This document shows, in pieces, positions 21,001-64,000 of a DNA stretch of 64,000 nt. Source of the stretch: Phycisphaerales bacterium (GTDB lineage: Bacteria; Planctomycetota; Phycisphaerae; WQYP01); the NCBI GenBank assembly GCA_027451365.1, contig DAIDJN010000082.1, positions 30,278 to 94,277 of the forward strand. The letters are read 5' to 3'. A program made the position numbers. How positions within the stretch are numbered: position 1 is the stretch's first letter; each line of letters starts with the position of its first letter.

Positions 21001-24000
21001 ACCCGCTTGCCGTTTGACCGAGGTTTCATGCCCGCATTTGTTCTGCTGCCACATCCGGAAACATATTATCCCTGCACGCAGGATATGCTGCGGGATGTTG
21101 AATTCCGCAATTTCTGGCTGGATCATTTTTCGCACCATTTTGACCTTATAATGGAACTGGCGGTGCAGGTTTACGGGCCGGAAAGTCGCGCCCGGGCGGA
21201 TGCGTGCGCCGCGGCACTGCGTGCAGAAATGGAATCTGTGCGGGAAAATCCGGCAAAATATGGCCAACTTAACCTGCAGGTTATGGGCAAACTGCGCCAG
21301 AATATTTTAAAGGCGCACAATCTGCCTGATCCATTTCTGTTAAACAAGCGGCGGGAAAATATCGCGATGCTGGCCTTGTATCCGCAGATCATCGCCGACT
21401 TAGACCGACCGCACCCCTCGCGTACAGACCTGGAAACGTTGCGGTTGCTGGTGGAAGGGGTGTTTGCCGGGAATATTTTTGATATGGGAGCAACGGAAAC
21501 GGCAAAGCTGTTTGCCAGCGGCTCGCCGGACTTTCGGAAAGTACGCCAAAGTCTGGATGGCAAGCGCCCCTGGCTGGTGGATCATTTTGATGCCTTTGCC
21601 GAACGGTTGCTTAATGGCGGCGGGTATAAAAAGGCCCTCTTTTTCATGGATAACGCCGGCAGCGACGCGGTGCTTGGTGTGTTGCCGCTGGTCAGGTGGC
21701 TGGCGGCAAGGGGTACGCAAGTTGGCCTGCTGGCCAATGAATCGCCGGCATTAAATGATATGATCGCCACGGAGTTGCAGGATTTACTGGGCCTTATCTG
21801 CGCCGTCGATCCGGTCATGGATTCACTTATAAAAAGCCAGCGGATTACCGCGGGTTCCTCCGGAGGCGGCACGCCGCTGATTGACCTGACGGACGTTTCT
21901 GAAGAATGCAACGCGATGGCGGCCGGGGCGGATCTGGTTTTCCTGGAGGGAATGGGGCGAGGGCTGGAAAGCAATTTCAATATCTCATTGACCACAGATG
22001 TCGTGAAATTGTGCATGATAAAAGAAGAAATAATCGCCCGTCGGCATGGGGGCAAAGTATTTGATGTGGTGTTCCGGTTTGACCGCGCCATCACCCAAAG
22101 GTGACAGCCGCCCGGCCGGTGACGCGCCGCCATCGTTTCGCAAGTCTTTTACCTCTCAATGATCGCCATGATCTCCGCGATCGTTTCGCCCATGACCCCG
22201 ATTGCCCTGTTGGTCGCGCCACGCGCGCCCCTGCCAACGCGGTGCACCGCGAGGTGGATGGGGCAGTTCCCGCGGTGCCTGGCCACGCCAGAAATGCGCA
22301 TTGGCTGGCGGCCGACCGGGATAGTAATGCCAGCGACGGTCATTGTCGTAATAATAGTACGCGTGCCGATCTGGATCGAAAAAGAACTGAGCGGTAAAAC
22401 CTGGTGATCCGGCCACCACAAAGCCGGGCGGTGGCGGCGGAAGATAGGCCGGAGGCGCTCCTTGCCAGAACACCGCGCCAGCGGGCGGCGGCGAGGGACA
22501 AAAACGCCAGCCATAGCGCGGATAATAGCAGTAATAGGCTCCCACCGATGCATCATAATAATACTGGTAGGCATATGGCTCCGGAGCAACCACGACGGCC
22601 GGCCCGGGCCGCCACGGTCCGCCGACGTAATATGCCCCACATCCGCCAAGCCCGGCAACACACACTGCCGCCGCCAATAAGGAGCCGATACTTGTTGGTA
22701 TGGAAGTTTTCATGACCACCCTTTCCGTAAAGACCTTTTCAGATTATATGCAGGCAGCCTGTCGCGCGGCGAGGTTGGAAAACTCCGGGCGAAAAACGCG
22801 CCGCAGGATAAAACGCATTGCGCCCGACAGGGATCGAACCTGTGACCTGCGGTTTAGGAACGCAGTTTCTTCGTGCTGCTGAAAAGCTCATAAATCCCAG
22901 CAATTCCCTTATTTTACTGCGTAAAATTCCTTTTGCAAGACTTCGCCAAGCATTATGATTTTCGATGCCTTAAGGCGGTATTTTCATGCCAAAACGGTAC
23001 CAAAACGGTAGACGTGGATCCTTGACGCACAACGAAGGTTGATCTCAGAATTTCAGGATTTTCATTGTGATGGCATTTGTGTAGAATTACATAAGGGATC
23101 CGGCATGTCATGGTAACGGATGCGAACTACTCTATGATCCCATGGCCCGCTCACTAATCATTGCAATCACAATTCTGCCACTTTCCCGTAAGCAAGCAAA
23201 ATATCGGCTCTGGTAGTTCATGCTATCACGGTGAAATATCAACATAATCCACACTACGACTTTGGTTGTGGAGAAAGGAGGTGCCCCTTTTGTGCTGATG
23301 GTGGGTTCATACCTTGCGTGCAATCTTCGACCTTCGTGATGTCCGTAACGCTAATGTCGAGTGGCGTGCATGTCTGTTGGCTGGACTGCAACAGTCGGGC
23401 ACAGCCGAGCATAATAAAGTTCCGATCACTCGATCCGCCCGGTCCAGCGTAGTGCCAAATATTCGTTGTTTGCGATCTGCCATAAGTTTAATCTCTCTTT
23501 CCATTGGATGGATTAATACGCCATGAATATCAGAGCTTCGCCCCAACTTCATTGGACACTTTAACTTCGCCAACTCTTGGTCCTTTTCGCCGGACACTAT
23601 TCACTTGCCTGCTTTTGAACACCTGAAACTCCCGATCCGAATCCATAAATCTTCGGGCCATCTCACGCACCAAGTCCGCATCGGCAACCTCGGCATTGTA
23701 AGCCTGATTGTAGAACTGCCGGTAGAGTTGTAAATCCAACCCCATACGGTAATCAATTTTAACATTACACGAAGTCGTCGCCGTGTGATGAAATGCCGGT
23801 AATGATATGTCGGTCATAATTTGTTCTCCTTTTACTTGTGTTTGTAATGCCTTTTCTGTCTGATGCGGCGTTCGCTTCCGCCGGATATTTCAACATTTCG
23901 TAGCGGCCTCAAGGCCGGTACGGTTTTAATATCATGTCCTCGTTGACCAGAACCCGAAACGGCCAGCCGGGCCGAATTGTAATCGTTGGCTGCACGTTGA

Positions 24001-63000: not shown

Positions 63001-64000
63001 GCCTTCCGGCAGGCCGGTGAAGATAGTCGTCGGCGGCGTGGCTGCGGAACTATTGTTGACGATAATGTCCAGCGGCGTGGTGTAGGCAATCGGGTTGATG
63101 GTGTTGATGGTCAAAGTACCGGCGAGGCTGGGGGCGTTATTGACCAAAAGTTGACCATAGCCCCCTTGACCGAAGGAGGGTCCGAATCCGGGATAACCAG
63201 AACTGGAGGCCTTGGTTTCATCCACGCCAATGGTTAGGTTGCCGGTGGCGGTCTGGGTGTAAACGCCGCTCATGAGGTTCAAAAACGTCCCGGCGGCGAT
63301 ACTGAGCGTTCCGCTGTTATTTAAGGCCACAGCGTAACTGCCGTACGACCCCATGCCCACGCCGCCAGTGCCGGTGATTTCCAGATTGCCAGCATTATTG
63401 AAAGCCAGGGGGCTGGTGTCGCCGGGATTTATCTGCGAAGGACCGTATCCGCCACTGGCGGTAATGACAAAAACACCACCCTTGGCGTTGTCAATCGTGG
63501 CACTGTTGTACATATTGATTGTGCCGGAACTACTGAGGTTCACCGTGCCGGAACTGTCCAATGCCACATTGGGTGTATTGGCGTTACCGAGACTTACCGA
63601 GCCGGTTATATTAAGAATTGCCGCATAATTGACGGCGATGGAGGCGTCTGCGACACCTCCGCTCCAGGTATTGCTGCCGCTTAGCGACACCGACCCCGTG
63701 CCGTCGATCGTTCCGCTGCTGAAATTCAGAGCATTGACATTGAGCGTATAGCCATTGGTCGCCAGCGTCGCGCCCTGCACCTCCACCTGACCGCCATTGA
63801 CGCTGGTCATGGTCGTGTTGCCGTCCAAGGTAAATGTCTCATTGCTGAAATTCAGCGTCCCGCCATCGACGGTAAACGCCGGAGCCGTATTGCTGGCGTT
63901 CGCATTCGTGCCGCCGGCATTGAGTTGCAATGTTCCGGCATCCACTTCCACCTGACCCGTGGATTGGTTGTTCAACGCCACCCCGCCGGTGCTACCGTAG

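Follow-up and report, generated by a model that had tools for sequence, protein, structure and literature searches.

A putative Trb-type conjugative element in a Phycisphaerae tRNA-Arg gene carries a predicted SecA-like export module next to a giant Rhs toxin gene

The window analyzed here, a 64,000-nt stretch of contig C82 from the genome of a Phycisphaerales bacterium (G000), contains the right-hand part of what appears to be an integrative and conjugative element (ICE), the left-hand part of which lies on contig C68. The features are collected in Table 1. The backbone consists of an integrase (PF00589, E 1.6e-14) that begins 119 nt past tRNA-Arg(CCT), an S24 repressor, the peptidase TraF, an RlxS relaxase, the coupling protein TraG, and a complete series of Trb genes. 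An earlier note on this DNA had listed most of these genes, and its list stands, although it lacked a tandem pair of TrbJ genes and the gene for a DUF2274 protein. The element thus has a recombinase beside its att site and terminal direct repeats, as well as a relaxase, a coupling protein, and a mating-pair apparatus (TrbB, C, D, E, two J, L, F, G, and I with the TraF peptidase). The relaxase scores 346 bits against the RlxS model NF041267, which is under the 850-bit cut-off. No VirB1 or VirB7 homologue was recognized among the genes of the element, and no excisionase; the candidate for the latter, a DUF1580 protein, is one of nine small or unassigned ICE ORFs that were compared with PHROGs, none of which gave a match. 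The Trb block is interrupted by a variable insert without a counterpart in the G003 contigs that were compared, where element positions 48518-51052 went unmatched, and its 368-aa ORF matched no family. The SapC-family gene is found at the same location in two related elements (G003:C177 and G061:C188). The "rve integrase" of the earlier note is present but is better described as an IS481-like gene; it occupies the same position in all three elements, with a DNA identity of 77% (G003) and 87% (G061), and a recent IS insertion was rejected for this reason.

Table 1. Features of the element, by position in the window unless a contig is named.
Feature	Position	Strand	Evidence
attL, tRNA-Arg(CCT) itself	C68:52260-52333 (outside the window)		
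attR, 42-nt copy of the tRNA-Arg(CCT) 3' end, right boundary	22819..22860	.	exact repeat
DUF2274 protein, at the end of the Trb block	23530..23817	-	PF10038, E 2.4e-7
TrbI (VirB10)	23909..25474	-	PF03743, E 8.4e-62
TrbG (VirB9/CagX)	25538..26551	-	PF03524, E 2.2e-56
TrbF (VirB8)	26677..27393	-	PF04335, E 3.5e-38
TrbL (VirB6)	27483..28658	-	PF04610, E 3.3e-25
Two tandem TrbJ (VirB5-like)	28703-29569, 29576-30376	-	NF010448, E 3.8e-23 and 1.6e-17, below curated cut-offs
TrbE (VirB4 ATPase)	30421..33015	-	PF03135, PF19044
TrbD (VirB3)	33099-33371	-	PF05101, E 1.4e-5
TrbC pilin (VirB2)	33371-33712	-	PF04956, E 5.7e-16
Variable insert: DUF6338 protein (33955-34773, +) and 368-aa protein (35193-36299, -)	33955..36299		
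TrbB (VirB11 ATPase)	36403..37356	-	PF00437, E 7.3e-40
TraG coupling protein (T4CP)	38179..40110	-	PF02534, E 1.1e-85
RlxS-type relaxase (DUF3363)	40107..42257	-	PF11843, E 3.5e-47; NF041267, E 4e-103
DUF932 protein	44014-45006	-	PF06067, E 5.5e-60
SSB	45177-45635	-	PF00436, E 8.7e-30
SapC-family protein	45951..46964	+	PF07277, E 1.5e-71
IS481-like DDE (rve) gene	47054..48298	+	NF033577, E 2.5e-43
CdiI_2-type immunity gene, 129 aa	48615..49004	-	PF18593, E 1.4e-16
Giant toxin gene, 3' part, 4,994 codons	49015..64000	-	PF05593, E 4.4e-50; TIGR03696; PF18431, E 3e-25

The boundaries proposed in the earlier note, tRNA-Arg(CCT) on one side and a 42-nt duplicate of the 3' terminus of this tRNA on the other, were borne out. 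The 42-nt repeat occurs twice in the genome and is identical at 42 of 42 positions; the copy in the window lies on the opposite strand and becomes direct once the contigs are joined. The two parts, 19,007 bp on C68 and 41,067 bp on C82, add up to 60,074 bp in the merged sequence, in agreement with the size of 60.1 kb given before, and we put the true length at about 60-61 kb. The 42 nt of attR recur with 100% identity at G003:C34:10800-10841 and G033:C62:22228-22269. Homology to the G003 element begins at the tRNA and stops ∼30 bp beyond attR, the tested flanks are without a match, and the outer flanks of the G000 and G003 elements have only 4 nt in common. A search with both chromosomal flanks in 60 relatives found no syntenic empty site, because the flank genes and tRNA-Arg are on separate contigs in every one of them. 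The GC content is uninformative, being 55.3% for both the element and the genome. Taken together, the att pair, the integration and conjugation genes, which are complete once both halves are combined, the limits of homology to G003, and a bridging contig in another genome (G061:C188, below) support that an ICE is inserted in tRNA-Arg and divided over two contigs. By homology, the tyrosine integrase would recombine the att site of the element with the terminal 42 nt of the tRNA, restoring the tRNA, and the HTH-S24 (CI/LexA-like) repressor would silence the transfer genes as long as it remains uncleaved. RlxS, TraG, and TrbB-C-D-E-J-J-L-F-G-I, with TraF as pilin peptidase, would then pass a single strand to the recipient, where SSB and the DUF932 protein would function upon its arrival.

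The earlier claim that the element travels between genera is supported at the level of comparison with its relatives. The collinear contig on which that claim relied was confirmed, although it is G003:C177 and not G033:C177. Relative to the G000 element, this contig matches at 86.3% on the tRNA side, 89.5% in the module, 77.5% where the toxin gene begins, 77.3% at the rve gene, and 89.8% at the SapC gene. Between genera g1 and g3 the element DNA is 86-92% identical, as compared to 64-74% for flanking chromosomal genes. The SecA-like protein of the G000 ICE is 99% identical to that of G003:C177, 91% to that of G003:C94, 82% to that of G033:C28, and 65% to the host's own copy on C81, and a quick tree unites the four copies linked to ICEs in a single clade (SH-aLRT 99). 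A search for the relaxase was positive for 6 of the 61 genomes, from four genera; G033, with five matches, has several copies. Module and ICE genes share a contig in three cases (G003:C94, G033:C28, and G061:C188). In three of the six ICE-bearing genomes (G018, G027, and G034), the ICE relatives lack the module, which is therefore optional cargo. On G028:C20, only the tRNA and 122 bp of the left arm are retained.

Such remnants raise the alternative that the locus is a fixed island, that is, a decaying ICE that is no longer mobile and is retained for its cargo. The relatives G003:C94 and G033:C28 are rearranged and IS-rich, and the integrase and TraF are missing beside the module in G061. However, we consider this alternative unlikely for G000, where all core genes are full length and the att repeats are intact, and where parts of the element recur nearly identically in another genus, as seen for the SecA-like protein, and in several copies in G033. 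Our reading therefore remains that of a mobile element, and from these comparisons the complete weapon, consisting of export machine, toxin, and immunity gene, seems to move between genera as one package.

The predicted export module, like the rest of the cargo, is flanked by TraF and the relaxase. Its genes encode a short SecA paralogue, a PqqD/RRE-M50-HlyD fusion, two further adaptors of the HlyD type, and a channel resembling TolC. The 643-aa SecA-like protein has SecA_DEAD, SecA_PP_bind, and P-loop_SecA domains only and is without the wing/scaffold domain; it aligns with residues 148-739 of a 1,245-aa frame containing the housekeeping SecA, and its GEGKS, DEAD, TNMAGRG, and GRAGRQGD motifs are intact. 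In the 731-aa fusion, residues H214, E215, H218, N317, P318, and D323 are invariant across 39 homologues. Its Peptidase_M50 and PqqD domains score 24.3 bits (cut-off 27.2) and 23.1 bits (cut-off 23.4), respectively, and its C-terminal part resembles MacA and EmrA (E 6.5e-5). The 305-aa and 485-aa proteins belong to HlyD_3/HlyD_D23 and the 621-aa protein to OEP. The locus thus has the composition of a secondary SecA_DEAD/M50-HlyD/HlyD/OEP module, with a wing-less SecA_DEAD protein, three HlyD-type proteins (one with M50), and an OEP.

Among the curated models, NF041824, the daptide RRE-M50 protease, fits the fusion protein best (E 6.4e-40); the two have in common a PqqD/RRE-like N-terminus and, behind it, an intramembrane protease with an HExxH motif. 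A radical-SAM/SPASM gene adjoins SapC in G003:C177. The module could accordingly process and secrete a small peptide, such as a daptide-like RiPP, or act as a small-molecule pump, and adjoin the giant gene for another reason. This seems quite unlikely to us. The fusion is below the NF041824 cut-off (137 versus 300 bits) and has an extra C-terminal MacA/EmrA-like adaptor domain, and there is no obvious gene for a small precursor, the one extra ORF (102 aa, L001:9446-9754) having no Pfam or NCBIfam match. Moreover, otherwise unrelated giant proteins keep one kind of leader beside one type of module, and a 1,098-aa leader-bearing protein is encoded within the chromosomal module of the host on C81. 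A SecA-like gene is present in 17 of the 18 leader-positive genomes, as compared to 43 of 61 overall (Fisher p 0.012, with kin that are not independent); the leader profile misses 26 of the 43 SecA-positive genomes. A complex prediction with the RRE region (residues 1-135, 39-row alignment) and the leader (residues 1-90, eight rows) gave scores of 0.15 and 0.29 against a mark of 0.32 and weighs neither way. We infer export of the giant toxin by the module, so that the toxin is probably exported by the element's own machine.

The giant gene is itself divided between the contigs. Its 5' part, on C68:65612-71266, encodes the leader and PKD domains, and the 3' part encodes Calx-beta and Big_9 domains, 16 He_PIG stretches, DUF6531, RHS repeats, an Rhs core, and a C-terminal RNase-A-like CdiA-CT. 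The earlier note described a 6841-aa LEPR-XLL Rhs toxin. The merged ORF is indeed 6,841 aa, counted from a GTG that aligns with the ATG of relatives, but it is probably short of at least one ∼212-aa tandem unit, and we put the full payload at ∼7,000 aa. As for the label, the curated model NF012209 (threshold 17 bits) finds nothing at E<=10 in the first 120 aa of the G000 protein and 13.6 bits (E 0.039) in the G003 leader; however, the G000 leader aligns with motif-bearing leaders, with ...RQGPVLEQLEQRIYMSS in G000 at the site of ...RQGPRVEILEPRLLLSS in G003. By this alignment, the G000 leader is a homologous variant of the LEPR-XLL motif. The leader is ∼78 aa long, of the LEPR kind, without a Sec signal, and is alignable in nine proteins; the giants of G000 and G003 have only their first ∼109 aa in common (50% identity).

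The body of the protein is that of an Rhs polymorphic toxin (PF05593, TIGR01643, TIGR03696, DUF6531, and PF18431), followed by a PF18593 immunity gene, the ATG of which lies 10 nt past the toxin stop. The giant of G061 has the same body with a different tip and a different downstream gene, and the alignment of the two stops 38 aa past a common ...GDPINM.D.SGH motif. Rhs repeats, a core motif, an exchangeable C-terminal toxin, and an immunity gene directly 3' are features shared with the Rhs/CdiA toxins. Many Gram-negative Rhs proteins are exported by a T6SS, and CdiA by CdiB/T5SS. The G000 toxin differs from these in its length, its N-terminal LEPR-type leader, and its adjoining TolC-based machine, and its likeness to CdiA-CT/CdiI is limited to the toxin tip and the immunity protein. 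No PAAR or VgrG was found among the element's ORFs scanned, and neither a CdiB/TpsB transporter nor a TPS domain among these ORFs or in the giant, as would characterize type Vb secretion. Type I secretion does not fit either: none of the 13 C68 ORFs of the element that were scanned encodes an ABC transporter, the conserved targeting-like part is N-terminal, and the C-terminus is a variable toxin. An improbable alternative is that the giant chiefly aids transfer of the element, as an adhesin that stabilizes mating pairs, rather than antagonism. The G000 stalk is composed of Ig-like adhesin-type domains, and the giant on G003:C177 has cadherin-like and Big_9 domains, with neither Rhs repeats nor a toxin domain found in its last 1,500 aa, and does not align with the G000 Rhs region. 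Nevertheless, an Rhs cage with an exchangeable tip followed by a small gene, as in G000 and G061, is the signature of a polymorphic toxin, and the two roles are mutually compatible.

The join runs through the giant gene. As noted before, the final 115 nt of C68 (71,266 bp) are the reverse complement of the final 115 nt of C82 (94,277 bp). In the whole assembly this 115-mer is confined to these two right ends, the overlap is the sole link for either end in the contig-end overlap table (92 directed records), and blastn with 2.1 kb spanning the join against the 88-contig assembly matched C68 and C82 and nothing else. The giant reading frame stays open over the join. In addition, G061:C188, a single 46.7-kb contig from another genome, contains the same block from the module to DUF932 at 80-92% identity; it is collinear with the G000 element from the SecA-like gene to DUF932, and its ∼90% match is uninterrupted at the join, which indicates that the adjacency of C68 and C82 is real. 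The protein identity between the giants of G000 and G061 is 89.9% and 82.8%. At the join, G061:C188 has one additional ∼636-nt repeat unit relative to the merged sequence, and this tandem is also present in contigs from two sequencing runs. Contigs from two of the four runs link position 64000 of the window back to 63662 via 297 other letters. Based on these loop-back contigs and the additional unit in G061, the merged sequence probably omits at least one repeat unit. Self-comparison of the merged giant gene, as DNA and as protein, revealed no repeat at the join, so the missing unit, if any, is absent from the rest of the assembly. The loop-back contigs may derive from a variant strain; runs X2-X4 contain a ∼99% variant of the giant gene, with 25-27 differences per 2.2-2.3 kb. 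Summed run depth is raised over 63618-64000, a quantity that is not copy number, and none of the run contigs listed for the four runs, with letters compared up to position 64000, reaches C68-unique sequence. The G003 giant was rejected as a ruler for the join, as the shared part is too short. That the join is an assembly coincidence, in which two different giant genes from different strains or elements of the community share 115 nt, is very improbable: the stretch does fall inside a tandem unit to which contigs loop back, a variant gene exists, and the overlap is shorter than the 141 nt most common at contig ends, but both sides occur together, in unchanged order, on the single contig G061:C188, the frame is open with no other partner for either end, and the att pair and the ICE functions require both halves together.

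The gene set of the module has been described computationally as a secondary SecA_DEAD locus with type-I-secretion-related proteins (Kamneva, Poudel, and Ward, 2015, PMC4452313). As described there, it includes a short SecA paralogue without wing/scaffold, three HlyD proteins (one with a weak Peptidase_M50), OEP/TolC, and no ABC transporter, and the hosts include Planctomycetes, as here. The main text of that paper raises horizontal transfer as a possibility only and names neither cargo nor vehicle, with "giant", "conjugative", "mobile", and "plasmid" occurring 0 times each; the G000 locus differs in being ICE cargo beside a leader-bearing Rhs toxin. The backbone resembles the Tn4371-family ICEs and ICEMlSymR7A as presented by Ryan et al. 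(2009, PMC2789088) in its scaffold of integrase, TraF, RlxS-like relaxase, TraG, and TrbBCDEJLFGI, in having accessory genes inside the transfer region, and in size (42-70 kb in that family). However, that account gives the family an 8-bp attB (TTTTTCAT) and a repA/parA/parB stabilization module, whereas the G000 element uses a tRNA 3' end with a 42-nt repeat and has no Rep/Par family among the ORFs scanned. Because of these differences, together with an accessory block between TraF and the relaxase, the S24 repressor, and the planctomycete host, it is not a member of the Tn4371 family in the strict sense. A whole antagonistic secretion apparatus on a conjugative element shared between species is also reported for Bacteroidales from the gut, in which the T6SS loci GA1/GA2 are located on ICEs (Coyne et al. 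2016, PMC4714493; 2014, PMC4073490), but the apparatus described there is a contractile T6SS rather than a SecA-like/M50/adaptor/TolC machine, in another phylum and habitat.

As far as gene content and comparison allow, we think it likely that the locus is a Trb-type (MPF-T, RlxS) ICE of about 60-61 kb at the tRNA-Arg(CCT) 3' end in an uncultured member of the Phycisphaerae, with the machine, the Rhs toxin, and the immunity gene as its cargo. In the mechanism that we propose, the RRE domain would read the leader and the M50 domain would cut it off, the SecA-like ATPase would drive the chain via an inner-membrane route, and the adaptors and TolC would bring it out. The long Ig-like stalk would display the Rhs cage and toxin to neighbor cells, and the immunity gene would protect cells holding the element. 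A bolder version, which we regard as possible but doubtful, is that this is a self-transmissible and self-sufficient system for contact-dependent killing that employs a new type of secretion, and would be the first case of an Rhs toxin taking a SecA-like/M50/adaptor/TolC route after recognition of an N-terminal leader, with the ICE killing element-free neighbors and thereby favoring its own spread. On the same reading, the six module genes and the leader would suffice for export in a foreign host, as the whole set moved between genera nearly unchanged.

The locus offers a concrete vehicle for the patchy distribution of the module, which the main text of PMC4452313 could ascribe merely to possible horizontal transfer, and a cargo the function of which can be read: the RNase-tipped Rhs toxin, together with its immunity gene, suggests that one of the uses of the route is in antagonism between bacteria. 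It is also a natural minimal cassette, in which machine, leader-bearing cargo, and immunity gene seem to have moved jointly between genera, and it documents a Trb-type ICE family in Phycisphaerae with defense and competition cargo. In our literature searches, "SecA_DEAD" with "HlyD" found PMC4452313 alone on the gene set, and the titles matching "LEPR-XLL" deal with other subjects. When metagenomes were scanned for the SecA-like protein, 19 loci were obtained, none of which exceeded 53% identity or belonged to the ICE clade, and a scan with the first 400 codons of the window gave no relatives among 224 pattern matches. The SecA-like/M50/HlyD/TolC gene set itself is very widespread; the fusion protein has at least 1,986 homologues at E<=1e-10 among 8,000 candidates scored.

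The element is a real, well-bounded ICE. Its ends lie at a tRNA-Arg(CCT), located with ARAGORN on contig C68, and in the window, where the last 42 nt of this tRNA recur exactly once, on the other strand. After C68 and C82 are merged, the two 42-nt copies become direct repeats 60,074 bp apart (19,007 + 41,067 bp), which confirms the tRNA-Arg(CCT)/42-nt boundaries and the 60.1-kb size proposed in the earlier note. Homology to G003, a different genus according to the genome-set labels, begins at the first tRNA base and stops ∼30 bp beyond the 42-nt repeat, with identities of 86.3% on the integrase side, 89.5% in the export module, and 85.5 to 91.6% in the conjugation half. 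Past the repeat, the flanks of G003 and of the genome studied here (G000) have 4 nt in common, and the best G003 matches of the G000 chromosomal flanks are on other contigs, at 64 to 74%. The same 42 nt are present at 100% identity in G003:C34 and G033:C62; the window itself contains no tRNA.

A 26-nt inverted-repeat match with the core CCAAAACGGTATATACCGTTTTGG lies in the gap that separates the tRNA from the start of the integrase; it is preserved without change in G003:C177, G028:C20, and G033:C28 and could serve as a terminator or as a recombinase/repressor site. A ∼295-bp stretch just upstream of the tRNA, with three more copies in the genome (C39 and two on C54, 89-95%), is an unclassified dispersed repeat. 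Contig G028:C20 carries the tRNA-Arg and the first 122 bp of the left arm, 100% identical to G000, with DUF6088/AbiEii genes next to it and no integrase; this piece probably represents either a remnant or another island in the same site.

The gene content claimed for the element is borne out by family matches on both contigs. The C68 part encodes an integrase, a DUF1580 protein, an HTH-S24 repressor, a TraF peptidase, the export module, and the 5' part of the giant toxin gene, and the module consists of a short SecA (643 aa), a PqqD-M50 fusion (731 aa), two HlyD proteins (305 and 485 aa), and an OEP/TolC protein (621 aa). The window holds, on the cargo side, the 3' part of the giant gene, a CdiI_2 immunity gene, an IS481-like rve gene, SapC, SSB, DUF932, and a HYExAFE protein, and, for conjugation, an RlxS/DUF3363 relaxase, TraG, TrbB, TrbC, VirB3, TrbE, two TrbJ genes, TrbL, VirB8, CagX/TrbG, TrbI, and DUF2274. 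The rve gene has the same position in G000, G003:C177, and G061:C188 (77-87% DNA identity), which argues against a recent IS insertion, and the long antisense ORF covering it is probably spurious. In the G003 element a radical-SAM/SPASM gene adjoins SapC; none was seen at the corresponding place in G000.

This scaffold is that of the Tn4371-like ICEs and ICEMlSymR7A, with TraF, an RlxS-like relaxase, TraG, TrbBCDEJLFGI, and accessory genes within the transfer region (PMC2789088). The element departs from them by its integration in a tRNA and its S24 repressor, and no repA/parAB genes were seen in it; we file it as an MPF-T/RlxS ICE outside the Tn4371 family.

Coordinates of the element, its surroundings, and related loci
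Feature	Locus	Position
Ordinary chromosome (class-I W/Y-type tRNA synthetase, CinA, GH3, GH10, rhamnosidase genes)		window 1-22818
Element, window part		window 22819 to contig end
42-nt tRNA repeat		window 22819-22860
IS481-like rve gene		window 47054-48298
Antisense ORF over rve		window 47009-48424
tRNA-Arg(CCT)		C68:52260-52333
26-nt inverted-repeat match	L001:1141-1166	C68:52407-52432
∼295-bp stretch	L002:11357-11651	C68:51356-51650
tRNA-Arg and left-arm piece	L034	G028:C20:2652-2847
Second module copy	L032	G000:C81:16223-29684
Multi_ubiq gene set	L033:11848-18704	G000:C81:41848-48704
Host leader proteins	L058	G000:C84:113629-113955
	L054	G000:C46:13318-13542
Radical-SAM/SPASM gene	L045:13221-14486	G003:C177:52220-53485
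Module with giant, 46,679-bp contig	L108	G061:C188
Module with conjugation genes	L041/L042	G003:C94
Rearranged ICE relative	L043/L044	G033:C28:1-31159

The merged sequence depends on the joining of C68 and C82. The 115 nt at the right end of C68 recur in reverse complement at the right end of C82, the 115-mer is found nowhere else, and among all tabulated contig-end overlaps (92 directed records of 25-259 nt, 34 of which are 141 nt long) it is the sole link of either right end; the unique tail-to-tail overlap described in the earlier note was thereby reproduced in the sequence and in the overlap table. Ordinary 141-nt overlaps connect the left ends to C6 and C67. The reading frame is open across the join and counts 6,855 codons if it begins at the first TTG or 6,841 from a GTG that is the counterpart of the ATG in relatives, and neither the DNA nor the protein of the merged gene shows an internal repeat at the join. 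Contigs of four public runs from one study of mine-drainage metagenomes contain the sequence, and none of those listed reaches C68-unique sequence.

Searching species-representative genomes for relatives of the SecA-like protein led to contig G061:C188, which starts with chromosomal genes, a 200-nt attR-like remnant, and two small genes, continues with a SecA-like gene, an M50 fusion, two HlyD genes, TolC, and a 7,034-aa giant, and ends with a 130-aa gene, a stretch matching the G000 rve gene, and SapC, SSB, and DUF932. When positions are counted with 2,000 bases of flank added on each side (tRNA at 2001-2074), element 6316-21237 matches C188:11926-26856 at 90%, through the join at 20893-21007. 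At the protein level, residues 1-2078 of the G000 giant align with 1-2064 of the G061 giant at 89.9% identity, and 1689-6652 with 1890-6898 at 82.8%. Since the match spans the join, the C68 and C82 ends are neighbours within a single gene.

The two G061 alignments overlap on G000 with an offset of 630 to 639 nt, and the G061 giant therefore has one tandem unit (∼212 aa) more than the merged G000 sequence. Tandem copies of the unit also occur in a related giant in G033:C57, where three matches of ∼212 aa follow one another. In two of the four runs (X2 and X3), contigs continue from the last base of the window through 297 other letters into a near copy of 63662-63903, and in X1 a match begins at 63662 with unmatched letters before it. 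On the simplest reading, which we consider fairly likely, the real G000 giant gene has at least two units with a common 115-127-nt stretch, at which the assembler broke, and ∼0.5 to 0.6 kb is absent; our confidence goes no higher because the looping contigs could derive from a variant strain. If a repeat unit is missing, the element would measure at least ∼60.7 kb and the protein at least ∼7,050 aa. The claimed length of 6841 aa is what the merged frame gives from GTG, but it is probably too short, the giant gene being slightly under-assembled.

The giant begins with a leader of ∼78 aa (MVQAK.K ... PWL ... REVR.SR ... RQGP..E.LE[PQ]RI..S) that aligns in nine proteins of G000, G003, and G033 and in which no long hydrophobic stretch of the Sec-signal type was seen by eye. 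A LEPR-XLL giant with the same start had been claimed in a relative. The start does align, at 50% over the first 109 aa, which is all that the G000 and G003:C177 giants have in common, but the curated LEPR-XLL model does not reach the G000 leader variant. A leader profile was positive in 18 of the 61 genomes, 17 of which also have the SecA-like gene (the exception, G021, is 89% complete); the Fisher p of 0.012 for this co-occurrence is overstated since kin are not independent. Two more large host proteins, on C84 and C46, have a like leader (1,980- and 4,569-aa frames), and the one on C84 shares 72% identity with the ICE giant across residues 53-120.

Beyond the leader, the giant contains PKD, Big_13, Calx-beta, and Big_9 domains, 16 He_PIG stretches, DUF6531, RHS repeats, and an Rhs core. 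Its C-terminal tip is a CdiA-CT RNase-A-like domain (PF18431, E 3e-25), and the CdiI_2 gene starts 10 nt past its stop, so that the description as an Rhs toxin with an immunity gene holds. The G061 giant has the same body, its alignment stops 38 aa beyond a common ...GDPINM.D.SGH motif, and its tip, which matches no Pfam family, is followed by the different 130-aa gene, after which rve, SapC, SSB, and DUF932 are again 87% identical to G000. This swap of tip and downstream gene is a cassette exchange of the kind that typifies polymorphic toxins.

In the module, the SecA paralogue keeps the GEGKS, DEAD, TNMAGRG, and GRAGRQGD motifs. The fusion protein has H214, E215, H218, N317, P318, and D323 invariant in an alignment of 39 homologues, which we take to be the HExxH and NxxPxxxxD active-site motifs of M50 proteases. 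Its N-terminus scores just below the PqqD cut-off, the protein matches a daptide RRE-M50 protease (NF041824) at E 6.4e-40, and there are matches to MacA and EmrA in its C-terminal part. As a set, the module genes agree with the "secondary SecA_DEAD" locus of Kamneva, Poudel and Ward (PMC4452313). A second, chromosomal copy of the module on C81 stands amid housekeeping genes and encloses a 1,098-aa Sortilin/BNR-like protein with a short leader form and a small F5/8-type-C protein; this copy has no giant gene beside it. Elsewhere on C81, an M78 peptidase and HTH pair followed by Multi_ubiq, DUF6791-ThiF, DUF6527, and an MmeI-like restriction-modification gene has the appearance of a ubiquitin-like defence island.

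From homology and context, on which all functional statements here rest, the ICE would integrate, stay repressed, and transfer in the manner of Trb-type ICEs. The RRE would read the leader and the M50 domain cut it, the SecA-like ATPase would drive the chain, and the adaptors and TolC would pass it out. The stalk would then present the Rhs-caged RNase to neighbours, with the immunity gene protecting carrier cells. Bacteroidales T6SSs are reportedly a precedent for the carriage of an entire secretion system by an ICE. A T1SS or T4SS has only been suggested as the route of a Rickettsia Rhs-like toxin (PMC9111745). The ICE scaffold, the module (computationally), and the toxin class are already known; the value here is that they are tied together in one element, which offers a compact, naturally portable cassette for a first experiment on the export route.

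The SecA-like protein, counted at E ≤ 1e-100, is present in 43 of the 61 genomes. Identity to the ICE copy is 99% for G003:C177, 91% for G003:C94, 82% for G033:C28, and 65% both for the chromosomal copy of G000 on C81 and for G001 of the same genus. A quick maximum-likelihood tree (33 rows) places the four copies labelled by us as ICE-linked from gene context in one clade (SH-aLRT 99) with G013:C16 as sister, and chromosomal copies cluster by genus. Movement of the ICE between genera, as the earlier note had it, is backed at the level of comparison by the cross-genus identity and this clade. The relaxase occurs in six genomes of four genera (G000, G003, G018, G027, G033, with five matches, and G034; 66-88% identity), three of which have ICE-clade SecA-like genes (≥82%), so that members of this ICE family carry the module as an optional cargo.

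Linkage on a single contig is seen in G003:C94 (M50 fusion, SecA-like gene, IS, TrbB, TraG, relaxase, DUF932, SSB) and in G033:C28 (integrase, S24, TraF, TrbC to TrbI, SecA-like gene, with a tRNA-like match by the integrase end). On G003:C94 the IS separates the M50 fusion and SecA-like gene from TrbB, TraG, and the relaxase, and an AbiEi/AbiEii pair and a GIY-YIG gene are also present. G033:C28 is a rearranged ICE relative in which genes for an SMODS cyclase, a bacterial HORMA protein, an AAA ATPase, and DUF6602 form a CBASS-like set between TraF and the Trb genes; three DDE transposase genes lie on this contig.
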